Of a stretch of DNA of 64,000 nucleotides, positions 6,671-17,578 are shown one piece after another. The notes below the pieces were generated by a model that worked only from the letters and a program-made list of their open reading frames with translations, was not told where the DNA came from and ran no database searches. A program made the translations under genes and the position numbers. Every line of letters begins with the position of its first letter. Position 1 is the stretch's first letter. The stretch comes from a virus (taxonomy: Duplodnaviria > Heunggongvirae > Uroviricota > Caudoviricetes), in the IMG/VR virus record IMGVR_UViG_3300045988_005753; one strand, written 5' to 3'.

Positions 6671-7061
6671 AAAAACCTCTCTCTGCTTGTTCGATTTTTG
6701 CTCTTAAAGTTTCGCAATGCTGTAAATGGTAGTTAGCTTCTTGTTCATGTGTTGCTAACTGCCTTTCCAGAACAGTTTTATAGTAACCTGCAAGTTGCTC
6801 TTTTGTCAATGGGTGCTCTGAAATAATATCAAGTCCACTTTCACCAAGAGGATTGAATTGTCCATGCTCATTGACATTGTAAGTCTCAAACTTGAACATA
6901 CCATTGTTCACAGACTCAATAGGTGACAGTTCAACAAGCTCTACAGTAAACCGTGTATACACCTTGTCGCCTCTTGAAACTACATTGTTTCCAATGATGC
7001 GTACAAGCGAACCATTACGAGTGTATTTAAAAGTTCCAAAGTCACTAGCCCAAAGTTTCAT
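6663..7061 (-). CDS. hypothetical protein
   Basis: ATG with GGAGAAAA RBS immediately downstream of the terminator at 7079-7103. Confidence 0.55.
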   Translation of the reverse strand: MKLWASDFGTFKYTRNGSLVRIIGNNVVSRGDKVYTRFTVELVELSPIESVNNGMFKFETYNVNEHGQFNPLGESGLDIISEHPLTKEQLAGYYKTVLERQLATHEQEANYHLQHCETLRAKIEQAERGFYE

Positions 7062-7078
7062 AGTTTTCTCCTTAGAAA

Positions 7079-7112: not shown

Positions 7113-7577
7113 TTACTTTGGGTATACACTGTCAAGATAAATGTCAGCTTCCATTCTACGTCTGTTTTTCAGTCCGTTTGAAGTGACCTTCTTACCTTTG
7201 ACTGTAACCTTGTTCCACCACTGCATAGCTTCTGCACAACCTCCCTTATTACCAGCGTTGTGGCGCTTGATAAATGTTGAGTCCTGCATAGCTGTGATAC
7301 CGATGTTGTATGTTTCACTTACAAGTGCATCGAACTCATTCTGAGTAGTTGGAACCTTGATAGCTTTGTTCACTGCTGCAACAAACTTCTCAACATCCGC
7401 GAGAAGATACTGTTCAGCTTGTTCAGCAGTAATTTTCATACCCATCTTAACAGTTTTTCCGTCAATACGAATTGTACCATACCCGATTGTTGGGATTCCG
7501 GCAGAGTCTTCGTAAGCCTCTAACTCCAGACCTTCGAAGAACTTAATAGCGTCTAAACCTTTTCTTGAGAGTTGCAT
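7113..7577 (-). CDS. endolysin, phage lysozyme (T4 e / lambda R-like)
   Basis: N-terminal FEGLELEAYEDSAGIPTIGYG matches the catalytic-Glu region of phage lysozymes; 154 aa. Confidence 0.8.
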   Translation of the reverse strand: MQLSRKGLDAIKFFEGLELEAYEDSAGIPTIGYGTIRIDGKTVKMGMKITAEQAEQYLLADVEKFVAAVNKAIKVPTTQNEFDALVSETYNIGITAMQDSTFIKRHNAGNKGGCAEAMQWWNKVTVKGKKVTSNGLKNRRRMEADIYLDSVYPK

Positions 7578-8710
7578 TACGCCTCCCCTGCTGGGTTAAC
7601 TGTAACTGTTGCTGCATTGGATGTTACAGAGCCACCTGCACCAGTAACTACACAGGTGTAGCTTCCTGCATCAGCAGCGGTTGCACCTTCTTTGGTGTAA
7701 GTTGCAGTAGTTGCATCGAGGATGTCTTCCTCACCTTTCTTCCATTGGTAACCTGTCGCACCTGTTGCCACAACATTCAGCGTTAAGGTCTCACCTTCAG
7801 TGATTTCTTGATTGGTTGGCTGTTGAGTGATAACTGGTAAAGCTTTCACAGTAACGGTTGCAGGGCTAGAAGTGACAGAACCACCTGCACCTGTTACAAC
7901 GCAAGTGTATGAACCTGCATCTGCTGGCAGAGCACCAGACTTACTATAGGTTGCATCTGTAGCCGAAGGAATGTCAGAGCCATCTTTCTTCCACTGATAA
8001 CCTGTTGCACCTGTTGCAGTCACTTCCAAGTTGATGTTTCCACCCTCATTGACGGTCTGGCTAGAAGGTTGCTGTGTAATCACAGGCAGTGCGTTGACAG
8101 TAACTGTTGCCGCATCTGAGGTAACGCTTGTCCCAGCCTCTCCAGATACAACACAAGTGTATGAACCGGCATCAGAAGGTTCTACAGACTGTTTTGTGTA
8201 GGTTGCAGATGTGGCGCTAGTGATATCCTCACCATCCTTTTTCCATTGATATCCAGTGGCATTAGTTGCAACAACGCTTAGGGTAAGTGTACCACCTTCA
8301 TTTACTGTTTGATTGGTTGGTTGCTGAGTGATTGATGGTGGCTTGATAGCGTCCTTCAACTTAGCATTCAACATTGAGAATGGTTTAACTCTTGCCAGCC
8401 ATTCACAATAAACTGTATCAACGTCTTTACCATTGATAATTGCATATTGTAAGTCCATGAAGAAGTCAGAAGTTCTCATTTGAGCACCAATGCTGTAAAG
8501 CAACTCATCACTAAATGGAACTTTGTAGTCTGGTTTGTAGTCAAACTCATCGACTTCTGCAATATCAGCTTCAGGCCAATACGAACTGTAGGTAAGCGGT
8601 AAAATAGCCTCTTGATATGTTCTAAAATCATATCTCTTACCAGCCTTTACGTTTGCAATGAAGCCCTTCACAAACTCTTTGAAGTCTGGGTAAGTCTTTG
8701 CTTTAATCAT
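7577..8710 (-). CDS. protein with three tandem Ig-like domains; N-terminal domain paralogous to the 8707-9078 product
   Basis: three repeats of about 90 aa (ITQQP..NEGG..GATGYQWKKDG..DAGSYTCVV..VTV); shared WPE(A/E)DI and FMDLQY motifs with the neighbour. Confidence 0.7.
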   Translation of the reverse strand: MIKAKTYPDFKEFVKGFIANVKAGKRYDFRTYQEAILPLTYSSYWPEADIAEVDEFDYKPDYKVPFSDELLYSIGAQMRTSDFFMDLQYAIINGKDVDTVYCEWLARVKPFSMLNAKLKDAIKPPSITQQPTNQTVNEGGTLTLSVVATNATGYQWKKDGEDITSATSATYTKQSVEPSDAGSYTCVVSGEAGTSVTSDAATVTVNALPVITQQPSSQTVNEGGNINLEVTATGATGYQWKKDGSDIPSATDATYSKSGALPADAGSYTCVVTGAGGSVTSSPATVTVKALPVITQQPTNQEITEGETLTLNVVATGATGYQWKKGEEDILDATTATYTKEGATAADAGSYTCVVTGAGGSVTSNAATVTVNPAGEA

Positions 8711-10335: not shown

Positions 10336-10707
10336 ATGAAAAACAGAACAAACAAAGGCCAGTTTAAAAAAGGCCAGTCTGGAAACCCATCTGGAAGACC
10401 AAAAGGCTCACGTAACAAAAGCTCTCTCGTAAAAGCTCAACTGACCATTGATAATTCTGCTGAGTTTGCTGCAAAGTTGTTTGAAGCAATTGTTACAAGG
10501 GACGCTGCTAAGCTTGCAGAGTTCGGTTTGACGACTGACGATGTAAACCTGAAGTCGATGATGGAGGCTGGTAAAACTATCATGACTCACTCAGCAGGTG
10601 AGATGAAAGCGATTGCAGCAGACACTAAGAAGACCCCTGATAACGGTGGTCAGTCTCAGACAGATAACAAACCAACGTTCTCTGCTGTTGCAACGCTTAA
10701 AAAATAA
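10336..10707 (+). CDS. hypothetical protein with N-terminal GNPSGRPKG motif (possible DNA-binding, terminase-small-subunit-like)
   Basis: ATG with AGAGG RBS; basic glycine-rich N-terminus. Confidence 0.5.
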   Translation: MKNRTNKGQFKKGQSGNPSGRPKGSRNKSSLVKAQLTIDNSAEFAAKLFEAIVTRDAAKLAEFGLTTDDVNLKSMMEAGKTIMTHSAGEMKAIAADTKKTPDNGGQSQTDNKPTFSAVATLKK

Positions 10708-10789: not shown

Positions 10790-12205
10790 ATGAGCGAATT
10801 ATTTAAACATGCGCACCTTCATGCAGGTCGAACTGAAAATGGTGCTGTAAACCATACTTCATCAATGTCTGCTCTTGTAGACTTTTACAAAGCTGCTGGT
10901 TCAAGCCGTAGCAATGTAGAAATCTTACCAGACCTGTTCTACAAAGCTTTGCGTGAGGATGTTGATGTTGCAGTTCGTATTTTACTGCATATGCGAGATG
11001 TACGAGAAGGTATGGGTGAGCGTAAAGCCTTCAGAACTGTTTTGCTTCAAGCGATTGAAGATAAAGTTTTAGAGCCTACGCAGGTTCTTCGCATTATGGA
11101 TAAGATTGCAGAGCTTGGTCGTTTTGATGACTTCAAAATCTTTGTAGGTACTCGTTTCGAGACAGATGCCTTCAAGCATTTAGAAGCAGCATTACTAGAC
11201 CCTGCAACAGCAGGTTTGGCAGCTAAGTGGTTACCACGAGTCAAACCACGTCATAAGCAGTTTGTAAAACGTTTCTGCAAGTTTGCAAACTTGAGTGAGA
11301 AAGAGTACCGCACACTGCTGTCTGCACTATCTGATACAGTTGAACAAAAAATATCTGCTAATGAGTTTGGTAAGATTGACTACAGTAAGATTCCTTCACT
11401 TGCTGCTGCACGTTACCAAAAGCTCTTTAACCGTAAAGATGGAGAACGCTACAAAGCTTACATTGAGTCCTTATCAAAGGGCGAGACTAAGATTAATGCT
11501 GGTGCTGTTTATCCATATGATGTGATTAAATCTATCAAGTATGGTAATGCAGATGTTGCTAATGAGCAGTGGAAAGCACTACCAAACTGGATGGCAGAAG
11601 GTGAAAACATCCTGTGTATGACTGATGTTTCAAGCTCAATGTCTTGGGTGAATCTTGGTTCAATCACTGCCCTTGATATTGGTGTATCCCTTGCCTTGTA
11701 TGTAGCAGAACGCAATACAGGTTGTTTTAAGAATGAGTTAATGGTTTATTCAACAAACCCTCATTTCATCGAACTGAGTGGTGATTTACGAAACCGTCAT
11801 CGTCAGGTAATGCGTCATGTTGAATATGGTTCAACTAACTTACAAGCAGCTTTTGACCGCATTCTTGAAATAGGTAAGAGAAACAACTTGACTCAGGAAG
11901 ATATGCCAAGTAAGCTTATCATCTTCTCTGATATGGAGTTCAATCAGGTTGACGGTGCAAATGGTCATACAAACTTTGAAGCAATTCAGAGTAAGTACAA
12001 AAAAGCTGGATATGAGATGCCACAATTGGTATTCTGGTACTTAGCAAACCGTAATGGTACTTGCGAAGTGTCTGTTAAGGATAACGGTGTAGCAATGGTA
12101 TCTGGTTTCTCTCCAGCCACTTTAAAAGCTCTGCTTGGTGGTGAGAAGTTTGACCCAATCAGCGTAATGCTCAAAGCAGTAATGATTGACCGCTATATCT
12201 GGTAA
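10790..12205 (+). CDS. vWA-domain protein, candidate Ro60/TROVE-like RNA-binding protein
   Basis: 471 aa; helical N-terminal part then a DxSxS MIDAS-type motif (DVSSSMS) typical of vWA folds; sits directly upstream of the tRNA array that contains Y-RNA-like elements. Confidence 0.55.
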   Translation: MSELFKHAHLHAGRTENGAVNHTSSMSALVDFYKAAGSSRSNVEILPDLFYKALREDVDVAVRILLHMRDVREGMGERKAFRTVLLQAIEDKVLEPTQVLRIMDKIAELGRFDDFKIFVGTRFETDAFKHLEAALLDPATAGLAAKWLPRVKPRHKQFVKRFCKFANLSEKEYRTLLSALSDTVEQKISANEFGKIDYSKIPSLAAARYQKLFNRKDGERYKAYIESLSKGETKINAGAVYPYDVIKSIKYGNADVANEQWKALPNWMAEGENILCMTDVSSSMSWVNLGSITALDIGVSLALYVAERNTGCFKNELMVYSTNPHFIELSGDLRNRHRQVMRHVEYGSTNLQAAFDRILEIGKRNNLTQEDMPSKLIIFSDMEFNQVDGANGHTNFEAIQSKYKKAGYEMPQLVFWYLANRNGTCEVSVKDNGVAMVSGFSPATLKALLGGEKFDPISVMLKAVMIDRYIW

Positions 12206-12223: not shown

Positions 12224-12252
12224 TTGACAATGTGTTTAATACCCTTTAATAT
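12224..12252 (+). promoter_or_regulatory. sigma70-type promoter upstream of the tRNA array
   Basis: TTGACA, 17-bp spacer, TAATAT. Confidence 0.55.
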
Positions 12253-12370
12253 GTTCTACATAGAAACGAAATGAGAGCTTTTCTAAGATACTGAAAAATA
12301 TTTTAAAAAAGTTCTTGACAACCACTAAAAAATAATGTTAAAGTAGTTACATAGAGTTTGAAAAGTTTAT

Positions 12371-12447
12371 CTCTGTTTAGCTCAGCTTGGTAGAGCGTTC
12401 CGTTTGGGGCGGTAAGGCCGGAGGTTCAAGTCCTCCAACAGAGACCA
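12371..12447 (+). tRNA. tRNA-Pro (UGG)
   Basis: cloverleaf folded by eye: acceptor CTCTGTT/AACAGAG, T-arm GGAGG-TTCAAGT-CCTCC, encoded CCA. Confidence 0.75.
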
Positions 12448-12454
12448 AATTAAT

Positions 12455-12532
12455 GTTCCAGTAGACAAAATGGTAAAGTCACCACTCTTTCAAAGTGGAT
12501 ATTTGAGGGTTCAAATCCCTTCTGGAACGCCA
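12455..12532 (+). tRNA. tRNA-Glu (UUC)
   Basis: acceptor GTTCCAG/CTGGAAC, anticodon stem CCACT/AGTGG, loop CTTTCAA, CCA. Confidence 0.75.
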
Positions 12533-12537
12533 GTTTT

Positions 12538-12618
12538 GACAGAAGACCAATTACAGCAAACTTAATCTTATTCATCTGAAGGTAAATCGGACAAAGAAGA
12601 GATTTGGTCTGGTCATTA
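12538..12618 (+). ncRNA. stem-bounded structured element A (ACAGAAGACCAATTACAGCAA ... TTGGTCTGG)
   Basis: 5' AGACCAA pairs with 3' TTGGTCT; compensatory changes relative to elements B and C. Confidence 0.4.
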
Positions 12619-12623
12619 AGAAT

Positions 12624-12700
12624 TGCGGGTATAGAGAAAGGGCGTCTCACATGTCTCATTAGCATGGTATCGGCAGGTTCGACTCCTGCACCCGCCTCCA
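12624..12700 (+). tRNA. tRNA-Met-like (CAU), irregular acceptor with a 1:72 mismatch
   Basis: T-arm GCAGG-TTCGACT-CCTGC, anticodon stem CATGT/GCATG, loop CTCATTA, CCA; 5' boundary uncertain. Confidence 0.5.
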
Positions 12701-12705
12701 AATTT

Positions 12706-12776
12706 ACAGAAGACCGTTTACAGCAACATTTATTAAATTTTTAGCGGAAAAATTGAAAGATACGGTCTGGTAATAC
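12706..12776 (+). ncRNA. stem-bounded structured element B (ACAGAAGACCGTTTACAGCAA ... ACGGTCTGG)
   Basis: 5' AGACCGT pairs with 3' ACGGTCT; internal AATTTTT-AGCGG-AAAAATT hairpin. Confidence 0.4.
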
Positions 12777-12783
12777 TAAACAT

Positions 12784-12860
12784 GGTTAGGAAGCACATAA
12801 GGTATGTGCGGTCGCCTGTTAAGCGAATGGCACAGGGTTCGAATCCCTGACTAACCGCCA
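12784..12860 (+). tRNA. tRNA-Asn (GUU)
   Basis: acceptor GGTTAGG/ACTAACC, D-stem GCAC/GTGC, loop CTGTTAA, T-arm CAGGG-TTCGAAT-CCCTG, CCA. Confidence 0.75.
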
Positions 12861-12929
12861 AATTTAGGAGAGAAGCGATTGCTCACCGATTTGTAAGGTG
12901 CAAGTCCTTAGCCTGAATAGAAATTAAAT

Positions 12930-13017
12930 GTGTCGTTATCCCGTAGATGGTAGCGGTGGGGACTGTAAATCCCTTGTCATTGAGACTCGGTAGGTTCGAC
13001 TCCTACACGGCACACCA
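12930..13017 (+). tRNA. tRNA-Tyr (GUA), long variable arm
   Basis: 88 nt; acceptor GTGTCGT/ACGGCAC, loop CTGTAAA, T-arm GTAGG-TTCGACT-CCTAC, CCA. Confidence 0.7.
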
Positions 13018-13022
13018 ATAAA

Positions 13023-13100
13023 GGTTATGTAGTTTAATCTGGTTAAAATACTCCCCTGTCACGGGAGATGATGAGGGTTCAAATCCCTTCGTAACCGCCA
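13023..13100 (+). tRNA. tRNA-Asp (GUC)
   Basis: acceptor GGTTATG/CGTAACC, anticodon stem CTCCC/GGGAG, loop CTGTCAC, CCA. Confidence 0.75.
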
Positions 13101-13124
13101 ATTTTGAGAGGGCTATTTAGCCCC

Positions 13125-13160
13125 TCCCTTAAAGAGTTCTTACGAGTATTCTTTAAAGGA
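13125..13160 (+). other. conserved hairpin (stem CCTTAAAGA/TCTTTAAAGG, loop containing TTCTTACGAG)
   Basis: same hairpin family recurs at 13974-14005 and 16466-16495, each time in a spacer of the tRNA array. Confidence 0.45.
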
Positions 13161-13161
13161 G

Positions 13162-13240
13162 CAGAAGGCCAAATACAGCAAGAATGTATGAAATTTCAAG
13201 CCAATTTAATTTTGAAAATTTAAAACTTGGTCTGGCTCAA
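13162..13240 (+). ncRNA. stem-bounded structured element D (AGAAGGCCAAATACAGCAAG ... TTGGTCTGG)
   Basis: 5' GGCCAA pairs with 3' TTGGTC (one G-U); same ACAGCAA core as A, B and C. Confidence 0.35.
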
Positions 13241-13247
13241 CAAATTT

Positions 13248-13385
13248 ACAGAAGACCGTTTACAGCAAAACTTAAACAATCTATTTCTCCGGTAAAGAAA
13301 AGGCGAAGGTTCGATTCCTTCACTCGGCAGATGTCGAGTTGGTGTAATGGTAGCACTTAAGATGATAAACAACGGTCTGGTAATT
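13248..13385 (+). ncRNA. candidate Y-RNA / YrlA-like tRNA mimic: closing stem around a circularly permuted tRNA-like module
   Basis: order read directly: 5' stem AGACCGTT, T-arm GAAGG-TTCGATT-CCTTC, acceptor 3' strand ACTCGGC, 4-nt loop, acceptor 5' strand GTCGAGT, D-arm GTGT-AATGGTA-GCAC, 3' stem AACGGTCT. Confidence 0.5.
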
Positions 13386-13529
13386 ATCTTTGTAGATAAG
13401 TTATTAAGCTTACCTGTGAGTATGCGACCACAAAGGGTGAATGGGTAAATTCTAGATTTAAACCCAAAAAGGCACATCGCTACAGACCTTAAGCAAGTCT
13501 GGGTAGCTTATCTACAAAGATAATTTAAT

Positions 13530-13605
13530 GGAAGTGTAGCAGAATGGTGATGCGGCAGACTTTTAATCTGACAGGCGATGGGTTCGAATCCCTCCACTTC
13601 TACCA
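13530..13605 (+). tRNA. tRNA-Lys (UUU)
   Basis: acceptor GGAAGTG/CACTTCT, loop CTTTTAA, T-loop TTCGAAT, CCA. Confidence 0.7.
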
Positions 13606-13609
13606 ATAT

Positions 13610-13686
13610 GGTTCAGTCGCAGATAAGGTAATGCAAGGGTCTCATAAGCCCTATGAATGTGGGTTCGATTCCCATCTGAACCTCCA
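13610..13686 (+). tRNA. tRNA-Met or tRNA-Ile2 (CAU)
   Basis: acceptor GGTTCAG/CTGAACC, anticodon stem AGGGT/GCCCT, loop CTCATAA, CCA. Confidence 0.7.
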
Positions 13687-13687
13687 A

Positions 13688-13763
13688 GCTGGTATAGTTA
13701 AGAAGGTTATAACACTCCCCTGATAAGGGAACATCGGTGGTTCGATTCCACCTACCAGTACCA
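13688..13763 (+). tRNA. tRNA-Ile (GAU)
   Basis: acceptor GCTGGTA/TACCAGT, D-stem GTTA/TAAC, loop CTGATAA, T-arm GGTGG-TTCGATT-CCACC, CCA. Confidence 0.7.
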
Positions 13764-13778
13764 ATTTCAATAAAGTTG

Positions 13779-13807
13779 TTGACATTGAGATGTGACTACT
13801 TTATAGT
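13779..13807 (+). promoter_or_regulatory. internal sigma70-type promoter within the tRNA array
   Basis: TTGACA, 17-bp spacer, TATAGT. Confidence 0.5.
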
Positions 13808-13973
13808 AACCTTAGTTTTCGTTGCGTAGCGTCTATTTTGCAAATTTAAAATAAATGCAAACGACAATGTTTTTCTGGCAGTAGCTTGATAGGCTAAACA
13901 CCAGTGAGGTCTTCCAATCCCTCATCAAAGAATTTGGCGTACTCGCCCACGGTATGATTAATAAGGTGGGCAT

Positions 13974-14005
13974 CTTTAAGGACTTTCTAAGAGAGTCTTT
14001 AAAGA
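13974..14005 (+). other. conserved hairpin (stem CTTTAAGGA/TCTTTAAAG, loop CTTTCTAAGAGAG)
   Basis: member of the TTCT(T)A(C/A)GAGAG-loop hairpin family. Confidence 0.45.
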
Positions 14006-14009
14006 TAAT

Positions 14010-14086
14010 GCACCCTTAGTTCAATTGGATAGAGCAACGGTCTTCTAAATCGTTAGTTACAGGTTCGAATCCTGTAGGGTGTACCA
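14010..14086 (+). tRNA. tRNA-Arg (UCU)
   Basis: acceptor GCACCCT/AGGGTGT, anticodon stem ACGGT/ATCGT, loop CTTCTAA, T-arm ACAGG-TTCGAAT-CCTGT, CCA. Confidence 0.75.
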
Positions 14087-14228
14087 AATAGTTAGCAGAT
14101 TACTTAGACTGCCTTAGCGGGTCTTCCTGTAGGGAGGTGGTCTGTATCTCATGTTTTCCAGAACATGTAAATAATCTGAGAAGAAGCTTGACAGTGTTGA
14201 GATAACAGGGTAAGCTTCGAATTATAAT

Positions 14229-14311
14229 ATGGGACGATGTTAAGACTCTAAGGCATGAGCAACGGCCTCCAAAACCGTTTCAAAGGGGTTCAACTCCTCC
14301 GTCCCATGCCA
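14229..14311 (+). tRNA. tRNA-like gene, probably tRNA-Trp (CCA), with an enlarged irregular D-region
   Basis: perfect 7-bp acceptor ATGGGAC/GTCCCAT, T-loop TTCAACT, CCA end, anticodon loop CTCCAAA; 83 nt. Confidence 0.5.
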
Positions 14312-14324
14312 AAGTCTTATTAGG

Positions 14325-14414
14325 GGTAGGTAGCGGCTAATGGCAGCCAAACAGTCTTGAAAACTGTTGCCACTGTAGAGATACGGTGAGGGTTCGACTC
14401 CTTTACTTACCGCC
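14325..14414 (+). tRNA. tRNA-Ser (UGA), long variable arm; CCA apparently not encoded
   Basis: acceptor GGTAGGT/ACTTACC, anticodon stem ACAGT/ACTGT, loop CTTGAAA, T-loop TTCGACT. Confidence 0.65.
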
Positions 14415-14565
14415 TAATAAGATTTACTCCGTCCATGCTTGTTCGCATTGTCGGTTTATCCCTCGTGTATTGTCGTACACTGTCAAAGCACCTAGTAGGT
14501 GTCATGGAGAGAGATAATATCAAGCTCTCCAAAGGTTCTAGTCACCGGATTAAACAAGACTATGC

Positions 14566-14588
14566 AAAGACCTAAATAGGTCTTTTTA
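14566..14588 (+). terminator. rho-independent terminator-like hairpin inside the tRNA array
   Basis: AAGACC-TAAATA-GGTCTT followed by TTTTT. Confidence 0.45.
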
Positions 14589-14591
14589 GAG

Positions 14592-14650
14592 GGCTTCTAA
14601 GGTTATTACAGCTTGTTGTGGAACCTTGTTGCTTAGGTTCTTAGAAGTTC
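14592..14650 (+). other. long hairpin (CTTCTAAGG ... CTTAGAAG)
   Basis: 8-bp inverted repeat around a 40-nt loop; related to the CTAAGG hairpin family. Confidence 0.35.
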
Positions 14651-14666
14651 TCTAAAAAGATTTAAT

Positions 14667-14744
14667 GGGAGATTGACGGTAATTGGTAAACCTACCATCC
14701 TTAGAAGTTGGTGTTTGAGGGTTCGAATCCCTTGTCTCCTACCA
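14667..14744 (+). tRNA. tRNA with anticodon UAG (Leu-type) but a short variable arm
   Basis: acceptor GGGAGAT/GTCTCCT, D-loop AATTGGTAA (Leu-like), anticodon stem CCATC/GTTGG, loop CTTAGAA, A73, CCA; 78 nt. Confidence 0.6.
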
Positions 14745-14751
14745 AATTAAT

Positions 14752-14827
14752 GCAGGTGTAGCAAAATGGTTATGCGGCTGACTCTTAATCAGTAAGACGA
14801 TGGGTTCAATTCCCTCCACCTGTACCA
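14752..14827 (+). tRNA. tRNA-Lys (CUU)
   Basis: acceptor GCAGGTG/CACCTGT, anticodon stem GCTGA/TCAGT, loop CTCTTAA, CCA; close paralog of the Lys(UUU) gene. Confidence 0.7.
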
Positions 14828-14833
14828 AACAAT

Positions 14834-14909
14834 GGGGTCATAGTTTATATGGTTAAAATTCGAGTTTTGCAAACTTGGGAACTGAGTTCAATTCTCAGTG
14901 ACTCCACCA
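14834..14909 (+). tRNA. tRNA-Ala (UGC)
   Basis: acceptor GGGGTCA/TGACTCC, anticodon stem CGAGT/ACTTG, loop TTTGCAA, T-arm CTGAG-TTCAATT-CTCAG, CCA. Confidence 0.75.
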
Positions 14910-14915
14910 ATTAGT

Positions 14916-14990
14916 GCATCCATAGTTTAAACGGGAAAATTACAGTCTTCCAAACTGAGGTTGAGGGTTCGATTCCCTCTGGATGCTCCA
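14916..14990 (+). tRNA. tRNA-Gly (UCC)
   Basis: acceptor GCATCCA/TGGATGC, loop CTTCCAA, T-arm GAGGG-TTCGATT-CCCTC, CCA. Confidence 0.7.
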
Positions 14991-14997
14991 AATTAAT

Positions 14998-15073
14998 GCT
15001 CCTATCGTATAATTGGTTATTACGGTTGCCTTGTAAGCAACTTATCAGGGTTCGAGTCCTTGTGGGAGCACCA
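14998..15073 (+). tRNA. tRNA-Thr (UGU)
   Basis: acceptor GCTCCTA/TGGGAGC, anticodon stem GTTGC/GCAAC, loop CTTGTAA, CCA. Confidence 0.75.
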
Positions 15074-15074
15074 A

Positions 15075-15165
15075 TTCAGAGGTCAAGTGAAAGACCGCTT
15101 TGAGTCAACTGAAGACCGTAACAAATTCCACGGAGTTGAGTTAGCGGCACAACTCCAGACCTCTT
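15075..15165 (+). ncRNA. structured spacer element E (long-range stem CAGAGGTC/GACCTCT, internal hairpin GGAGTTG...CAACTCC, GAAGACCGTAACAA motif)
   Basis: inverted repeats read directly; shares the GAAGACCGT core with elements A-D. Confidence 0.35.
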
Positions 15166-15169
15166 TCAT

Positions 15170-15244
15170 ACTCGCTTAGTTTATATGGTAAAACATCACC
15201 CTTACAAGATGAAGAAAAAGGTTCAAGTCCTTTAGTGAGTACCA
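15170..15244 (+). tRNA. tRNA-Val (UAC)
   Basis: acceptor ACTCGCT/AGTGAGT, D-stem GTTT/AAAC, anticodon stem TCACC/GATGA, loop CTTACAA, CCA. Confidence 0.7.
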
Positions 15245-15245
15245 T

Positions 15246-15323
15246 GTTCCAGTATCCCAATTGGCAGAGGATGCAAGCTCAAACCTTGTATTAGTGACGG
15301 TTCGAATCCGTCTTGGAACACCA
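15246..15323 (+). tRNA. tRNA with anticodon CAA (Leu-type) but a short variable arm
   Basis: acceptor GTTCCAG/TTGGAAC, D-loop AATTGGCAGAG (Leu-like), anticodon stem GCAAG/CTTGT, loop CTCAAAC, A73, CCA. Confidence 0.6.
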
Positions 15324-15328
15324 ATTTT

Positions 15329-15404
15329 GCAGGATTAGTTCAAATGGAAAGAGCAACAGTCTACGAAGCTGTTAATAGGGGTTCGAATCCCTTATCCTGC
15401 GCCA
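15329..15404 (+). tRNA. tRNA-Arg (ACG)
   Basis: acceptor GCAGGAT/ATCCTGC, D-stem GTTC/GAGC, anticodon stem ACAGT/GCTGT, loop CTACGAA, CCA. Confidence 0.75.
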
Positions 15405-15421
15405 GATAAAAAGGTGACACT

Positions 15422-15664
15422 ATGCAAACATTAACAGTAGTTGAACATGAAAACTGTGAGAGTATTGAGTTTGTCAGGGTCATTGGTGTTGAACACCACA
15501 TTTTCTTAAAAGTGGGATACTTATGTGACCCCGCTAGAGTAGAAAGATTTATACGTGATTGTTTTGGTGGTAGACATCTGAAGAGTGTTATTTTTGAGAC
15601 AGTTTTACCAGAAGGTTTAGAAACGAATAATAACATTTACCTCCTTACGAGGATTAGACAATGA
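15422..15664 (+). CDS. hypothetical protein embedded in the tRNA array
   Basis: ATG with AGGTGA RBS; ATGA coupling to the next ORF. Confidence 0.45.
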   Translation: MQTLTVVEHENCESIEFVRVIGVEHHIFLKVGYLCDPARVERFIRDCFGGRHLKSVIFETVLPEGLETNNNIYLLTRIRQ

Positions 15665-16218
15665 GATACTTAAAGTATGCTTCATGGATTTTCTTAGCTT
15701 TGTTAGAGCCATTTGCAGCAATCTTAGCAGTTATCTTAGCACCTTTCGTAGTTCCATTCTACAGTGAGAAGAAAGGACATCTACCTTTCGGGTTCAGATG
15801 GATGGAAACTTATGACAACCCAATTGATGGTGATGAAGGTCACGTTAAAAGATGGGCTAATATTAGATGGATTGGTAAACTAGGTGTCTACATGCAAAGA
15901 GTCGGATGGCTCTGGAGAAACAAAGCTTATAACTTCTCTTACCATGTATTAGGGAGAGATGTAAAAGATGTTACTAAGTGGAAAGGTAATATCAACGTAA
16001 GTTCTGACCCTGAAGATAATCAGACAGGTTATCTCCTAATGTGGAACAGTAATGCTTGGGGATTATTCGCTTTTATCCCATCAATTAAAATCTTTGGTAA
16101 ACAATTTTACTGGAGAATTTATATTGGATGGAAACTAAAAAGTGTTGTCCCAGAAGAAAGAGCATTCTCAAGGGAAAGAGTTATGTTGGCATTCTTTATT
16201 CATCCACTGAGAAAGTAA
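15661..16218 (+). CDS. membrane protein embedded in the tRNA array
   Basis: N-terminal hydrophobic segment WIFLALLEPFAAILAVILAPFVVPF; 185 aa. Confidence 0.5.
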   Translation: MRYLKYASWIFLALLEPFAAILAVILAPFVVPFYSEKKGHLPFGFRWMETYDNPIDGDEGHVKRWANIRWIGKLGVYMQRVGWLWRNKAYNFSYHVLGRDVKDVTKWKGNINVSSDPEDNQTGYLLMWNSNAWGLFAFIPSIKIFGKQFYWRIYIGWKLKSVVPEERAFSRERVMLAFFIHPLRK

Positions 16219-16226
16219 AGATTTAA

Positions 16227-16302
16227 AGGGGATTAGTTTACAAGGTTAAAACCTCGGTCTTTGAAATCGAAGAAGTTGGTTCAATTCCAACATCCCCCGC
16301 CA
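16227..16302 (+). tRNA. tRNA-Gln (UUG)
   Basis: acceptor AGGGGAT/ATCCCCC, anticodon stem TCGGT/ATCGA, loop CTTTGAA, T-arm GTTGG-TTCAATT-CCAAC, CCA. Confidence 0.7.
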
Positions 16303-16304
16303 AT

Positions 16305-16383
16305 GCTCCATTACTCCAATTGGCAGAGAGGCCAGACTTAAAATCTGTGTTATGTATCGGTTCGAATCCGATATGGAGTACCA
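16305..16383 (+). tRNA. tRNA with anticodon UAA (Leu-type) but a short variable arm
   Basis: acceptor GCTCCAT/ATGGAGT, D-loop AATTGGCAGAG (Leu-like), loop CTTAAAA, T-arm ATCGG-TTCGAAT-CCGAT, A73, CCA. Confidence 0.6.
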
Positions 16384-16388
16384 AATTT

Positions 16389-16464
16389 AGCGGTATAGCA
16401 TAACTGGCAATGCAGCAGTCTCTGAAGCTGTCTTATTAAGGTTCAAATCCTTATGCCGCTGCCA
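16389..16464 (+). tRNA. tRNA-Gln (CUG)
   Basis: acceptor AGCGGTA/TGCCGCT, anticodon stem GCAGT/GCTGT, loop CTCTGAA, CCA. Confidence 0.65.
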
Positions 16465-16465
16465 C

Positions 16466-16495
16466 TTCTAAGGATTCTTACGAGAGTCCTTAAAT
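16466..16495 (+). other. conserved hairpin (stem TAAGGA/TCCTTA, loop TTCTTACGAGAG)
   Basis: member of the TTCTTACGAG-loop hairpin family. Confidence 0.45.
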
Positions 16496-16571
16496 GTGGC
16501 CTTATCATAAATGGTAATGACCCATGCTGTGAACATGGTCTATACGGGTTCAAATCCCGTAGGTCACCCCA
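16496..16571 (+). tRNA. tRNA-His (GUG)
   Basis: acceptor GTGGCCT/AGGTCAC, D-stem TCAT/ATGA, anticodon stem CCATG/CATGG, loop CTGTGAA, CCA. Confidence 0.75.
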
Positions 16572-16576
16572 ATTTA

Positions 16577-16653
16577 TAGTCCAAGTAGCTTATATGGTTA
16601 AAGCGCGTGTCTGAAAAACATGAGAAGAGGGTTCAAATCCCACTGGACTACCA
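16577..16653 (+). tRNA. tRNA-Phe (GAA)
   Basis: acceptor TAGTCCA/TGGACTA, anticodon stem CGTGT/ACATG, loop CTGAAAA, T-loop TTCAAAT, CCA; 5' end uncertain by 1 nt. Confidence 0.65.
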
Positions 16654-16669
16654 ATTTCAAAGGTGCTTA

Positions 16670-17404
16670 ATGAAAGAGATGACAGAACAAGGTAAGGAGA
16701 TTTTTAATCTCTTAAAAACTGGTAAAGGGTTTTCTAACCCCCTTATTACTGGTGCAGCAGTTCTCGGTGGAACCGTAGCTGCCTCCACATCACTTGTAAG
16801 CTCTATTAGTTCTGTATCAGACCCTACAGTAAAAGATAAGCTTGTTGCTGCTGGACTTACAACAGTTCTGCTTAACAGCTTTACCACGAGTCTGACAAGC
16901 ACTACATCAACTACCAAAACACTGACAGATTACGGTCAAAAGTCCATTGATGAGTTTTCATCACGTATGCAGGTAGCAAAAGGTTATTCTAATGTTATGG
17001 GTGCAGCAGGTGAACAAGTTGGCTGTACACCATTTAGTGGTATTATGGGTGTTGCTACAGAGTATGGTCAAAAAGCTATTGATACGATTAACAGTGCACT
17101 AGACGGTGTTAATGATGTATTAAGTGATTTACAAGACGCTATTGACAAAGGTCTTGATACTATTTCTGATTTAGCTAACCAAGCTGTTAGTAAGATTAAT
17201 GAAGGTATCTCGAAGATTACAGCTTATGCAGATGAAGTTGTGCAGATGATTGAAGAAGAAGCTGCCCTTATTGCAGAGTACCTTAAAACGAATATCAATG
17301 GGTTCTTAGCAGGTATCTTACCAGACTGGTTTGATGATGCTTGTAAAACTGGTGTAATTGACACTATTGCAACACCAGAAATGAAGAACGCATTACAGAA
17401 ATAA
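16670..17404 (+). CDS. hypothetical Ser/Thr-rich protein
   Basis: track ORF starts inside tRNA-Phe; first ATG downstream of the tRNA (16670) has an AAAGGTG RBS. Confidence 0.5.
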   Translation: MKEMTEQGKEIFNLLKTGKGFSNPLITGAAVLGGTVAASTSLVSSISSVSDPTVKDKLVAAGLTTVLLNSFTTSLTSTTSTTKTLTDYGQKSIDEFSSRMQVAKGYSNVMGAAGEQVGCTPFSGIMGVATEYGQKAIDTINSALDGVNDVLSDLQDAIDKGLDTISDLANQAVSKINEGISKITAYADEVVQMIEEEAALIAEYLKTNINGFLAGILPDWFDDACKTGVIDTIATPEMKNALQK

Positions 17405-17405
17405 T

Positions 17406-17498
17406 GGAAGATTAACCCTAAAAGGTAAGGGAGCAGTTTGCTAAACTGCCAGTAGCTGAGAAATCGGTGTACCAGTTCAAGTCTGGTATCTTCCTCCA
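17406..17498 (+). tRNA. tRNA-Ser (GCU), long variable arm
   Basis: 93 nt; acceptor GGAAGAT/ATCTTCC, anticodon stem GCAGT/ACTGC, loop TTGCTAA, T-arm ACCAG-TTCAAGT-CTGGT, CCA. Confidence 0.7.
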
Positions 17499-17502
17499 AT
17501 TT

Positions 17503-17578
17503 GAATCCGTGACAGAAATGGCTATGTGCCTGTCTGCAAAACAGGTTTATAAGGGTTCGAGTCCCTTCGGATTCTCCA
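17503..17578 (+). tRNA. tRNA-Cys (GCA)
   Basis: acceptor GAATCCG/CGGATTC, anticodon stem CCTGT/ACAGG, loop CTGCAAA, T-arm AAGGG-TTCGAGT-CCCTT, CCA. Confidence 0.75.

Follow-up and report, generated by a model that had tools for sequence, protein, structure and literature searches.

The window, as we call the whole 64,000-nt stretch of DNA analyzed here, derives from a Felix O1-type phage (Felixounavirus) and carries a tRNA gene array with 26 tRNAs, upstream of which lies a gene for a Ro60-like protein (Table 1). Four copies of a module consisting of a closing stem followed by a UUACAGCAA box, termed M1–M4, are interspersed in the array, and it is the fourth of these, M4, located in the 429-nt spacer between tRNA-Asp and tRNA-Lys, that is our principal subject. 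At the gathering threshold, an Rfam search of the whole window returned tRNAs only. Many GenBank records mis-annotate M4, either as a tRNA-Thr of 129–131 nt or as hypothetical proteins; the tRNAscan-type model, a 129-nt tRNA-Thr with the 5' acceptor strand GCCAATT near 13201, was rejected, as this strand pairs at 5 of 7 positions, compared with 7 of 7 in the local hairpin, which also covaries. Our literature search found no paper on DUF2828-associated RNAs, nor any on the non-coding RNAs of Felix O1-like phages.

Table 1. Features of the Ro60-like gene and tRNA array region of the window, including the individual parts of M4
Feature	Coordinates	Strand	Basis and remarks
471-aa Ro60-like protein gene, presumed protein partner	10790..12205	+	Pfam DUF2828 + DUF7788/vWA; PHROG 850 'RNA-binding protein'
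Two sigma-70-like promoter matches, 5' of first tRNA	12224-12252, 12315-12344	+	consensus scan; pattern matches only
M1 (AGACCAA / UUACAGCAA / TTGGTCT-GG), tRNA-Glu to tRNA-Met	12541..12612	+	model R1, 25.5 bits
M2 (AGACCGT / UUACAGCAA / ACGGTCT-GG), tRNA-Met to tRNA-Asn	12708..12770	+	model R1, 37.9 bits
tRNA-Asp, upstream edge of spacer	13023..13100	+	ARAGORN, Rfam
M3 (AGGCCAA / AUACAGCAA / TTGGTCT-GG), directly 5' of M4	13163..13235	+	short stem-box RNA
M4 as a whole (stem-box frame + circularly permuted tRNA-like core)	13250..13380	+	covariation, RNAalifold, model R1 (131.9 bits)
M4 closing stem 5' strand AGACCGTT	13253-13260	+	pairs with 13371-13378
M4 conserved box UUACAGCAA, presumed protein-recognition element	13260..13268	+	first U forms the last pair of the stem
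M4 anticodon-like (YrlA 'V') hairpin TTTCT-CCGGTAA-AGAAA	13284-13300	+	5-bp stem, 7-nt loop CCGGUAA; Rfam tRNA model
M4 T-arm GAAGG-TTCGATT-CCTTC	13305-13321	+	G53-C61, U54, U55, C56, A58 present
M4 acceptor 3' strand ACTCGGC	13322-13328	+	7 bp with 5' strand, one G-U
M4 acceptor loop AGAT	13329-13332	+	caps acceptor stem
M4 acceptor 5' strand GTCGAGT	13333-13339	+	acceptor hairpin, 13322..13339
M4 T8 (U8) + G9	13340-13341	+	sequence
M4 D-arm GTGT-AATGGTA-GCAC	13342-13356	+	A14, G18, G19, A21 present
M4 closing stem 3' strand AACGGTCT	13371-13378	+	followed by conserved unpaired GG tail, to 13380
tRNA-Lys(UUU), downstream edge of spacer	13530..13605	+	ARAGORN, Rfam

The two promoter matches, together with a consensus scan that returned no terminator-like site on the + strand before the next promoter match at 13779, imply that M1–M4 are co-transcribed with nine tRNAs. 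M4 would accordingly be made within a polycistronic tRNA transcript, with the 3' end of the spacer RNA probably set by the RNase P cut at the 5' end of tRNA-Lys(UUU). In Felix-like phages the module RNAs belong to a separate, promoter-driven tRNA unit and not to an operon with the protein gene.

Measured from stem to stem, M4 is 126 nt long. The original prediction had listed its stems, arms and loop, all of which are present, albeit shifted by one base in places, and it had proposed that a loop caps the acceptor stem and that the T-arm, acceptor and D-arm sit inside the closing stem, an arrangement borne out by both the sequence and the covariation in 13 relatives. It had also located the free ends where an anticodon stem would be, and in this it was mistaken: M4 contains a complete anticodon-like arm, which went unmentioned, and the Rfam tRNA model aligns this very segment as the anticodon arm, with the next 4 nt as the variable region. 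The core therefore runs through anticodon-like arm, variable region, T-arm, acceptor hairpin and D-arm, thus comprising all four arms of a tRNA, with the break falling between the D-arm and the anticodon arm, at position 26/27. Since the nucleotides that form the tRNA elbow are all present (U8, A14, G18, G19, A21, G53, U54, U55, C56, A58 and C61), the core should adopt the tRNA L-shape and, judged by its sequence, is a whole permuted tRNA.

The fold was assessed on an alignment of 13 distinct relatives covering 29 base pairs. Pairing is retained in 94.8% of the cells of this alignment, as against 37–52% when the partners are slid by 1–3 columns, and the covariation score of 0.561, compared with at most 0.194 for the slid registers, was reached by 0 of 500 shuffles. 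The compensatory changes for which a comparison with homologous phages had been suggested are abundant, with 19 of the 29 pairs changed on both sides: such double changes affect seven of the eight closing-stem pairs (for example AGACTCTGT/ACAGAGTCT and GGCTTGC/GCAAGCC), three of the five pairs of the anticodon-like hairpin, three of five in the T-arm and six of seven in the acceptor hairpin, the latter two helices being 100% paired, while the D-arm is near-invariant across all relatives. RNAalifold independently returned the same five helices. The minimum free energy (MFE) fold of the single sequence likewise recovers every helix of M4, as the proposed folding check required, at an unremarkable energy (-31.7 kcal/mol, z = -1.4), so that the support for the fold comes from the comparison; taken together, the covariation and the RNAalifold result indicate that the fold is real. 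An additional inner helix of 4–5 bp in the MFE structure (CUUAA 13271-13275/UUAAG 13357-13361) loses its register in the relatives and was excluded from the model. In the box UUACAGCAA, CAGCA is invariant in the 13 relatives and the final A is kept in 12 of them.

A Ro60-like gene had been placed about 1 kb upstream, and the open reading frame in question indeed ends 1045 nt from M4 on the same strand. As single-sequence structure prediction gave an unusable model (pLDDT 44.6), an AlphaFold2 model was built from a 50-sequence alignment (pLDDT 88.1), and the ten best Foldseek matches to it in the PDB are all structures of Ro60 (9nfa, 2i91, 1yvp), Rsr (2nvo) or the Ro60 of phage phiLo (9kop, 9l5y), with E about 1e-8, TM scores of 0.44–0.65 and full-length alignments of 507–555 columns. 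The protein is thus predicted to possess the Ro60 fold, a helical repeat followed by a vWA domain, and the DxSxS motif of the family alignment (D279, S281, S283) is invariant. At the level of sequence the relationship fades: a Pfam search gave DUF2828, DUF7788 and a weak VWA_2 match and none to TROVE, a PDB sequence search returned nothing significant, and a profile search of PDB sequences picked up Ro60 at no better than E = 0.69, through the vWA domain. Given the lack of a Pfam TROVE match, the mode of RNA binding may differ from that of Ro60. Homologues are widespread, with 710 phage records matched by tblastn; DUF2828 proteins from six unrelated phage groups are 26–53% identical, the partner proteins of the M4 relatives are only about 53–56% identical, and the literature also describes DUF2828/DUF7788 proteins from plants and mimivirus-like sequences.

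The sister modules M1–M3 are shorter (58–68 nt) and contain no tRNA part, and A/U-rich AAAUUU tracts are found beside the modules; the stem of M3 reads AGACCAA in relatives, giving an A-U pair where the window has G-U. Stem-box modules also occur beside DUF2828 genes in Listeria, Campylobacter, Mycobacterium, Cronobacter and Vibrio phages, and in six unrelated phage groups the box UUACAGCAA follows a stem of 6–9 bp near such genes. When ACAGCAA was located on the gene strand in these six groups, 11 of the 19 sites were flanked by a stem of 7 bp or more, against a permuted-motif background of 10.7%, and the first position of the tail is G in 49 of 72 scanned stem-box candidates, a few of which are spurious. 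The position relative to the gene varies: the modules lie directly upstream of the DUF2828 gene, as a 5' leader and away from tRNA arrays, in Listeria and Campylobacter phages, and directly downstream of it in mycobacteriophage Lolly9, where the module is again away from a tRNA array, and in Cronobacter phage S13. A covariance model, R1, built from enterobacterial-type sequences only, detected full-length permuted-tRNA modules in an unseen metagenomic relative (69 bits) and in Lolly9 (41 bits); its 53-bit match in S13 (6944-7069) is the junction of two tandem, non-permuted, insert-bearing tRNAs, distinct from the permuted module of that phage at 7154-7288. As a negative control we took T5, which lacks DUF2828, and no stem-box module came up in its tRNA array. 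In the Listeria phage, RtcB lies 1.3 kb downstream, which echoes the Salmonella rsr-yrlBA-rtcBA operon (PMC4201824, PMC7790460), and the context thus fits a theme of RNA repair. Alternatively, DUF2828 and the modules could be linked because both serve a common requirement, for instance in tRNA processing, and not because one binds the other.

The architecture of M4 invites comparison with YrlA (Rfam RF02553), a tRNA-mimicking Y RNA bound by bacterial Ro60/Rsr, in which the T-arm, a capped acceptor hairpin and the D-arm are likewise enclosed by a closing stem (Chen et al. 2014, PMC4201824; Wang et al. 2018, bioRxiv 10.1101/312249). The likeness is extensive: both RNAs have a terminal stem formed by their 5' and 3' ends, a V hairpin, T-arm, loop-capped acceptor and D-arm with conserved elbow nucleotides, an acceptor of variable length with a 7-bp stem openable by RNase P in some members, a location on the same strand and within a few kb of a gene for a Ro60-fold protein, and shorter sister RNAs (as YrlB beside YrlA), and YrlA, too, occurs in phages. 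YrlA genes characteristically share the strand of a Ro60 (TROVE) orthologue that is no more than about 4 kb away, and their RNAs associate with Ro60 in vivo and carry modifications made by TruB and DusA; the neighbour of M4 has the predicted Ro60 fold and a non-TROVE Pfam assignment. M4 differs from YrlA in its complete anticodon-like arm (5 bp, 7-nt loop), in the break at 26/27 instead of in the anticodon loop, in its location inside a tRNA array as one of four modules, and in a presumed partner of the DUF2828/DUF7788 type. The covariance-model search that the original prediction had called for went against family membership, with no match of RF02553 (gathering score 69 bits) or Y_RNA even at E<=10, in searches of 451 nt and 151 nt; the YrlA box GNCGAAN0-1G, situated near the 5' end of those RNAs and proposed to contact Ro60, does not occur in 13240-13300, where the conserved box is UUACAGCAA. 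The YrlA model itself works, as it matches the core of Lolly9, which has the same build and a DUF2828 homologue, at 37.7 bits, below threshold. The earlier classification as a YrlA-like Y RNA consequently survives in part: topology, fold, the Ro60-fold neighbour and the Lolly9 match uphold the likeness, whereas the GNCGAAN0-1G box and a Pfam TROVE match are lacking, and membership in the YrlA family is rejected as neither RF02553 nor Y_RNA matched at E<=10. The best reading is that M4 is a YrlA-like tRNA mimic, outside that family, which would be expressed and work with a Ro60 paralogue.

We consider it probable that M4 is a non-coding RNA, the frame of which docks the Ro60-like protein while its interior acts as a tRNA mimic for an effector; its transcription, processing and binding, the effector and the role we infer from the features described above. 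The end stem of 7–8 bp, the single-stranded UUACAGCAA on the 5' side and the unpaired GG on the 3' side would together constitute a docking site for the DUF2828/DUF7788 protein, one that M4 may share with its three shorter sister RNAs. The tRNA mimic would be displayed to a tRNA-recognizing factor of the host or the phage, with RNase P, the CCA-adding enzyme, modification enzymes, an exoribonuclease and an RNA ligase as candidates, by analogy to YrlA-type Y RNAs, for which a function in tethering Ro60 to an effector has been proposed. Its likely role during infection would be to survey, repair or turn over tRNA and other structured RNAs. In the YrlA model nothing corresponds to the complete anticodon-like arm, for which simple effector tethering offers no explanation.

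This arm is where another reading begins, namely that M4 is a decoy or sensor for host defences that target tRNAs (anticodon nucleases, retron or toxin RNases), in which the nuclease is titrated or sensed by a tRNA body whose anticodon loop is correctly shaped yet free to evolve, whether or not the Ro60-like protein takes part. The 'anticodon' triplet differs in almost every relative (GGU, AUG, GCU, UCU, UUC, GAU, GUA), even between close ones, while the flanks are held in the pattern C-U-N-N-N-A-A in 7 of 10 distinct loops, the exceptions being the window, with C at the second position (position 33), and two relatives, L021 (UCAUAAA) and L023 (UUGUAAA). Diversifying or relaxed selection confined to the triplet would be expected to leave such a pattern, and the variability could simply be neutral. 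The 26-tRNA array is of a type linked to evasion of tRNA-targeting immunity, in work that PMC12916289 cites, and damage to tRNA elicits a response from the rsr-rtcBA operon of bacteria (PMC7790460). This proposal is nevertheless purely inferential, names no nuclease and leaves the three sister modules without a tRNA part unexplained, and we regard it as unlikely in its own right. It is compatible with the docking of a Ro60-like protein on a tRNA-mimicking RNA.

Less probable still is that M4 is a true tRNA gene, permuted or split, whose RNA is opened by RNase P and trimmed or supplied with CCA so as to yield a chargeable, decoding tRNA-Thr(GGU), the two pieces either staying together through the acceptor and closing stems or being ligated once the frame is gone. 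The 3' half does precede the 5' half, and when 13333-13357 is re-joined in silico to 13284-13329 the resulting 71 nt are called by ARAGORN as tRNA-Thr(GGU) with a 7-bp acceptor and discriminator A, in keeping with the tRNAscan-based annotations that label the site tRNA-Thr-GGT. An RNase P-type cleavage site would fall between 13332 and 13333, and in L016, L021, L024 and Cronobacter phage S13 the acceptor loop encodes N73-CCA and a short spacer ahead of the acceptor 5' strand, resembling a tRNA–tRNA junction; moreover, RNase P cleaves the Mycobacterium smegmatis YrlA, whose stem has 7 bp, and CCA is added to it in vivo (PMC4201824). The permuted tRNA genes of Cyanidioschyzon merolae and some archaea, as reported by Soma et al. 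2007 in the account given in bioRxiv 10.1101/312249, are spliced at a bulge-helix-bulge (BHB), pass through a circular intermediate and yield decoding tRNAs whose anticodon is fixed. M4 resembles these genes in having the 3' half first, a linker-closed acceptor, paired ends and an un-permuted form that scores as a tRNA, but lacks the BHB, as its closing stem is a plain helix in both the MFE and the RNAalifold structures, and its anticodon is not conserved in orthologues. With a different 'anticodon' in nearly every relative and a near-invariant D-arm, no amino-acid identity is conserved; position 33 in the window is C and not U; many relatives cap an acceptor stem of only 5–6 bp with a UACG-type tetraloop and encode no CCA; and the phage already carries a tRNA-Thr(UGU). 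We also know of no bacterial splicing endonuclease able to join positions 26 and 27.

A similarly low probability attaches to the view of M4 as a relic or processing spacer, that is, a decayed tandem-tRNA junction or a cleavage guide for RNase E, III or P. Its location in a tRNA spacer, the AAAUUU tracts flanking the modules and the tandem insert-bearing tRNAs of S13, which can also be read as a permuted module, are in line with such an origin, as is the suggested descent of YrlA from dimeric tRNA transcripts, which Wang et al. 2018 (bioRxiv 10.1101/312249) bring up with reference to Sim and Wolin 2018. Decay is, however, hard to reconcile with 95% pairing kept through 19 double changes while the partner proteins have diverged to the extent noted above, nor does a spacer function account for the modules off tRNA arrays in Listeria and Campylobacter phages and in Lolly9, or for their absence from the T5 array. 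Finally, the notion that the region encodes a small protein, in ORF 13184-13360 (+, 58 aa) or 13220-13477 (-, 85 aa), both of which appear in a mechanical ORF scan at a site that carries a 'hypothetical protein' in some GenBank records, was rejected with near certainty on the frameshifting 1-nt and other non-triplet indels that relatives carry inside both ORFs, substitutions there tracking base-pairing and not codon structure.

If the tRNA-mimicking RNA with a protein-docking frame is thus retained as the preferred reading, the question arises of where the frame itself belongs. The Class I RNAs of Dictyostelium, described in 2004, are abundant and linked to early development, and we know of no molecular mechanism for them. 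These RNAs (RF01414) are 42–65 nt long, have a DUSE promoter about 60 nt upstream, and share a motif in which U3, C6, C9, A10 and A11 hardly vary from one Class I RNA gene to another (Kjellin et al. 2021, PMC7919456). That motif, CCUUACAGCAA, is matched at 9 of 11 nt by M4 and M2 (GUUUACAGCAA) and by M1 (AAUUACAGCAA), including all five of these nucleotides, and the Class I feature of a 5' G paired to the C of a 3' CUG(U) is found in M4 (the G13254-C13377 pair followed by U13378 and G13379) as well as in M1–M3 and the Listeria, Campylobacter and Mycobacterium phage modules. Like Class I RNAs, the phage modules are multi-copy and clustered, with an end-joining stem of about 6 bp, a single-stranded (CC)UUACAGCAA right 3' of the 5' stem strand and a variable interior, and M1–M3 together with the Listeria modules (56–68 nt) are of comparable length; M4 differs in its phage and not amoebal origin, in sigma-70-like promoter matches in place of the DUSE and in its tRNA-like insert of about 70 nt. 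The full RF01414 model is the top or only relevant Rfam match for M1, M2, M4 and two Listeria modules, with scores (M4, 12.8 bits; M1, 19.7; M2, 17.1; Listeria, 23.1 and 19.6; Campylobacter, 14.1) that all lie below the gathering threshold of 41.5. As far as sequence comparison below threshold can tell, the nearest described relative of the stem-box family would therefore be the Dictyostelium Class I RNA and not Y RNA.

Two further phage systems offer a measure of similarity. RNA1, RNA2, RNA3 and others annotated in T5 (NC_005859) are small stable RNAs among phage tRNA genes, as M4 would be, and some are tRNA-like, but none is permuted, has the stem-UUACAGCAA-GG frame or gives a match to model R1, and T5 is absent from the records matched by tblastn with the Ro60-like protein. 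In Thermus phage phiLo a phage Ro60-fold protein likewise stands next to phage Y-like RNAs (Yrl1 and Yrl2), but these carry a CGAA motif and have no tRNA-like module described, and the protein is a canonical Ro60 homologue (PMC12135203).

It is conceivable, although we hold it only tentatively and think the contrary likelier, that the stem-UUACAGCAA-CUG frame is the cognate ligand of the DUF2828/DUF7788 Ro60 paralogues and that Class I RNAs are eukaryotic members of the same RNP system. [quoted passage not shown] Were the proposal true, M4 would combine, as a natural chimaera, a Class I-type frame with a whole permuted tRNA; the frame would be a modular protein handle for varied RNA cargoes, as the Y RNA stem is for Ro60; and DDB_G0281243 or another Dictyostelium protein would be predicted to be a DUF2828 member that binds the 11-nt motif. 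The box that the phage modules have in common with Class I RNAs provides a concrete, testable candidate protein family for the latter.

Ro60-Y RNA particles form a conserved RNA-surveillance system that is still poorly understood, and to our knowledge no effector has been described for the tRNA-like YrlA subclass. The locus presented here would extend the Ro60-Y RNA principle to a second, sequence-unrelated branch of the Ro60 fold, DUF2828/DUF7788, which is common in large lytic phages, and it points to the likely RNA partners of this branch, and hence to an undescribed Ro/Y-RNA-like particle. The CCA-plus-spacer acceptor loops and the tandem insert-bearing tRNAs may represent the natural intermediates for the proposed descent of YrlA from dimeric tRNAs, and the tRNA mimic in this phage is, by all appearances, a complete tRNA with a free-running anticodon triplet, situated in the very type of array that has been linked to immunity evasion.

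M4, the element at 13250-13380 (+) in which a stem-box frame encloses a circularly permuted tRNA-like core, is a selected RNA structure. All of the sequence elements listed in the original prediction are present, some with corrected coordinates, together with a fourth hairpin, TTTCT-CCGGTAA-AGAAA, that had been absent from it; in an alignment to the Rfam tRNA model (22 bits, below the tRNA threshold) this hairpin takes the place of the anticodon arm, with a variable region of 4 nt and then the T-arm after it. All five helices are recovered in the minimum free energy fold of 13248-13385, but the energy of that fold is ordinary (z = -1.4), so that the single-sequence fold of M4 says little. Relatives of M4 were taken from the GenBank phages pSJ21, Sf18, 3HA14, Mordin, Michonne, SUSP2, and REP5, and from metagenomic contigs whose partner proteins are 53-80% identical, and the proposed structure was scored on an alignment of 13 sequences: 94.8% of cells are paired, against 37-52% with partners slid by 1-3 columns, and the covariation score is 0.561, a value that 0 of 500 shuffles reach, against at most 0.194 for the slid versions. 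The compensatory changes sought among homologous phages are thus present, with both-side changes in 19 of 29 pairs: 7 of 8 in the closing stem (variants AGACCGTT/AACGGTCT, AGACTCTGT/ACAGAGTCT, and GGCTTGC/GCAAGCC), 6 of 7 in the acceptor hairpin, and 3 of 5 in each of the T and anticodon-like stems, the D-arm being almost invariant. Given none of them as input, RNAalifold arrives at the same five helices. A protein-coding reading of the region is excluded, because one-base indels of the relatives fall inside both overlapping ORFs.

Coordinates of M4, its sister modules and their surroundings in the window, with scores of phage modules against the Dictyostelium Class I RNA model (RF01414)
Feature	Position	Strand	Remark	RF01414 (bits)
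M4	13250-13380	+		12.8
M4 closing stem	13253-13260	+	AGACCGTT; pairs with AACGGTCT 13371-13378	
M4 fourth hairpin	13284-13300	+		
M4 T-arm	13305-13321	+		
M4 acceptor 3' strand	13322-13328	+		
M4 acceptor loop	13329-13332	+	AGAT	
M4 acceptor 5' strand	13333-13339	+		
M4 U8 and G9	13340-13341	+		
M4 D-arm	13342-13356	+		
M1	12541-12612	+	CAGA-AGRCCNN stem, (U)UACAGCAA box, complementary stem, GG tail	19.7
M2	12708-12770	+	as M1	17.1
M3	13163-13235	+	as M1	
tRNA-Asp	13023-13100	+	upstream border of 429-nt spacer containing M4	
tRNA-Lys	13530-13605	+	downstream border of the spacer	
Sigma-70-like promoter matches	12224-12252, 12315-12344		pattern match	
Next sigma-70-like promoter match	13779-13807		pattern match	
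Listeria phage module 1				23.1 (E = 0.036)
Listeria phage module 2				19.6
Campylobacter phage module				14.1

The core of M4 is a whole tRNA permuted at the 26/27 junction, since it has all of the tRNA elbow nucleotides (U8, A14, G18, G19, A21, G53-C61, U54, U55, C56, and A58) and since 13333-13357 joined in silico to 13284-13329 gives 71 nt that ARAGORN calls as a complete tRNA-Thr(GGU). The original prediction had placed free ends where an anticodon stem would be; this is contradicted by the anticodon-like arm, which also sets M4 apart from the YrlA of S. Typhimurium, described as a tRNA without an anticodon arm (bioRxiv 10.1101/312249). The tRNA-Thr(GGU) score of the re-joined core explains why tRNAscan-based annotations, using a poor upstream acceptor strand, give the locus as a tRNA-Thr-GGT of 129-131 nt, as in the GenBank records of ASO1B and REP5 (L001 1611-1739 and L002 1612-1742, roughly window 13200-13330; L-numbers denote comparison sequences). 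Other GenBank records draw "hypothetical protein" CDSs over M4, and both kinds of annotation are artefacts of the permuted tRNA core. Decoding by M4 is unlikely, because the triplet of the anticodon-like loop differs among relatives (GGU, AUG, GCU, UCU, UUC, GAU, or GUA) with nearly the same D-arm, and because the form of the acceptor hairpin varies: 7 bp with a 4-nt loop in the window, 5-6 bp with UACG-type caps in some relatives, and, in L016, L021, and L024, 7 bp enclosing an encoded N73-CCA with a spacer of 4-7 nt. The C-U...A-A flanks of the loop are kept in 7 of 10 distinct orthologous loops, the window itself having C-C.

N73-CCA and the spacer precede the 5' strand within the acceptor "loop" at L016 6954-7086, L021 5438-5572, L024 7104-7238, and L011 7154-7288 (Cronobacter phage S13). 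This form looks like a tRNA-tRNA junction, and its sequence resembles a genuine tRNA 3' end with an RNase P site after it, which suggests that the hairpin is opened to expose the CCA end; it fits the origin of YrlA from dimeric tRNA transcripts, a proposal that Wang et al. (2018) attribute to Sim and Wolin (2018).

The closing stem of M4 is not unique to it, as 5'-CAGA-AGRCCNN-(U)UACAGCAA ... NNGGUCU-GG-3' occurs four times on the + strand of the array (M1-M4), at the only 4 of the 20 ACAGCAA sites in the window with a flanking stem; M1-M3, of 58-68 nt and without a tRNA part, lie between tRNA genes. The window is a Felix O1-like phage (Ounavirinae, Felixounavirus), and about 190 phage records from Escherichia, Salmonella, and Shigella match the 451-nt region around M4 at 95-99% identity. 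ARAGORN finds 26 tRNA genes on the + strand at 12371-17578, 24 of them confirmed by Rfam. Because promoter matches flank the region and a pattern scan finds no + strand terminator-like site between those at 12315-12344 and 13779-13807, the spacer with M4 is probably co-transcribed with nine tRNAs and then freed by processing. The spacer starts (13104-13160) with two nearly invariant hairpins, GAG(A)GGGCU-AUUU-AGCCCCUC and CCUUAAAGAGU...AUUCUUUAAAGG, the second with a single compensatory change, A-U to G-C, in phage pSJ21. Directly after M4, 13382-13527 is strongly structured (-49.2 kcal/mol, z = -6.25). A stem of about 24 bp, with compensatory changes in relatives (e.g., GTAG/CTAC to GCAG/CTGC), closes this element around a mini-hairpin, AGAC-CUUAAGCAA-GUCU-GG, that resembles a shrunken stem-box module; the element has no Rfam match and is absent from L016/L017-type relatives.

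The gene that ends 1045 nt before M4 (ORF 10790-12205, +) had been called Ro60-like. Its product matches Pfam DUF2828 and DUF7788 (vWA-like) and PHROG 850 "RNA-binding protein", with no Pfam TROVE match and nothing informative in PDB sequence searches. The label is supported at the level of the predicted fold, since the ten best Foldseek PDB matches of a structure model from a 50-sequence alignment (pLDDT 88.1, pTM 0.88) are all Ro60 proteins (Xenopus and human Ro60, D. radiodurans Rsr, and Thermus phage phiLo Ro60; E about 1e-8, TM 0.44-0.65, full length), isolated vWA domains appearing only further down (E >= 8e-4). Immediately 5' lies a DUF5681 protein gene (123 aa, 10336-10707), likewise immediately upstream in 9 of 10 metagenomic relatives (L015-L021, L023, L024) and absent in L022; its product is a possible third component of the system. 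Further upstream, the product of 7577-8710 (-) is 377 aa long, has three immunoglobulin-like domains, and ends in a C-terminus resembling a chagasin-type inhibitor; at the matching position Yersinia phage P778 carries an annotated head outer capsid protein.

The proposed likeness to YrlA holds in architecture (a terminal stem, then the anticodon-like hairpin V, T, capped acceptor, and D) and in genomic logic (a phage that encodes a Ro60-fold protein and sister RNAs), but a covariance-model search with the Rfam YrlA model (RF02553) gives no match to M4 at E <= 10, the GNCGAAN0-1G box of YrlA is absent, and by sequence the partner protein falls outside the TROVE family. M4 thus appears to work like YrlA yet to lie outside it.

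DUF2828 proteins occur in 710 phage records from many host genera (tblastn), and we examined six distant groups, the Yersinia P778, Vibrio R11Z, Cronobacter S13, Campylobacter CP30A, Mycobacterium Lolly9, and Listeria LMTA-57 phages, whose proteins are 26-53% identical to that of the window (DUF2828 with DUF7788 confirmed in the five scanned, all but P778). At these loci 11 of 19 gene-strand ACAGCAA sites come 0-2 nt after the 5' strand of a stem with 7 bp or more, against a background of 10.7% for permuted motifs. The leader of the Listeria phage gene contains three modules; two stand immediately ahead of the Campylobacter phage gene, three immediately behind that of Lolly9, and one after that of S13. 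Their stem sequences differ everywhere with complementarity kept, and the permuted core recurs in the middle Lolly9 module and in the S13 module, the latter with ACCA in the acceptor loop. R1, a model built from the enterobacterial set only, matches an unseen relative (69 bits), Lolly9 (41 bits), M2 (38 bits), and M1 (25 bits); its 53-bit match in S13 (6944-7069) is a junction of two tandem insert-bearing tRNAs, not the permuted module at 7154-7288. Phage T5, which has a large tRNA array and is not among the tblastn matches, has no stem-box module and gives only partial tRNA matches with R1. That the linkage recurs and is strand-specific is the chief reason to take the frame as the probable binding site of the DUF2828/DUF7788 protein.

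Beside the DUF2828 gene, L011 6895-7137 (S13) and L009 8009-8149 (P778) carry non-permuted tRNA-like RNAs, two in tandem in S13, whose anticodon loop is replaced by a 40-70-nt insert of a hairpin and then UUCAGCA, the same parts being readable across the junction as a permuted module (the 53-bit R1 match). Intermediate modules of 88-94 nt (L016 7491-7586, L017 7242-7337, L020 7827-7922, L021 6048-6146, and L024 7586-7686) keep the frame, T-arm, and acceptor-like hairpin and have lost the D-arm, resembling YrlB, which retains only the T-arm. The T5 tRNA region (L025, NC_005859 28-42 kb) has eight annotated stable RNAs of unknown function, three of which (RNA1, RNA2, and RNA3) are described as tRNA-like; they are not permuted and have no stem-box frame. 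In Vibrio phage R11Z (L010 4964-5006) the 3' strand of a 41-nt stem-box hairpin, GACATT-TA-ACAGCAA...AATGTC, overlaps the DUF2828 start codon, which hints that the protein may control its own translation by way of this same RNA motif.

Unexpectedly, the only structured-RNA family that Rfam aligned full length to the stem-box modules is the Class I RNA of Dictyostelium (RF01414), with all scores below the 41.5-bit gathering score and no match to M3 at E <= 10. Even so, the alignments bring the phage modules into register with Class I RNAs as Kjellin et al. (2021, PMC7919456) define them: the two ends meet in a short stem, a 5' G pairs with the C of a 3' CUG(U), the motif CCUUACAGCAA directly follows the 5' strand of the stem, the interior varies, and the length is about 60 nt. 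According to the same paper, no organism outside Dictyostelia was found to have Class I RNAs. [quoted passage not shown] The likeness may reflect common descent, transfer, or convergence on a common protein family, and the putative link, if true, would raise the importance of the finding considerably.

In the mechanism that we propose, M1-M4 would be excised from the tRNA precursor, some of their ends being set when RNase P and 3' processing act on the flanking tRNAs, with A/U-rich AAAUUU tracts as plausible RNase E sites. For M. smegmatis YrlA, the cited determinant for RNase P is an acceptor of 7 bp that stacks on the T stem (PMC4201824); M4 of the window may therefore be opened at 13332/13333. 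The Ro60-like protein would bind the stem-box-GG frame, the tRNA-shaped core would recruit a tRNA-recognising factor, and the particle would act in surveillance, repair, or decay of tRNA or structured RNA during infection; phiLo Ro60 and its Y-like RNAs assemble with host PNPase (PMC12135203), and RtcB adjoins the DUF2828 locus in the Listeria phage. In the neighbourhood of its DUF2828 gene, that phage (L014 941-1039, 3428-3979, and 7808-9019) has a drum RNA, which clears the threshold at 50.2 bits, and a ROOL RNA, which narrowly misses it at 88.5 bits; the RtcB "tRNA-splicing ligase" gene lies 1.3 kb downstream. Speculatively, since the anticodon-like loop keeps its shape while its triplet is free, a role as decoy or sensor for anticodon-directed nucleases may come on top of this one or in its place. 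M4 is a conserved, covarying, permuted mimic of a whole tRNA on a repeated stem-box frame that tracks a Ro60-fold protein family across very different phages; beyond what was originally described, it would belong, as a variant, with the Ro60/Y RNA-type particles with tRNA mimicry.
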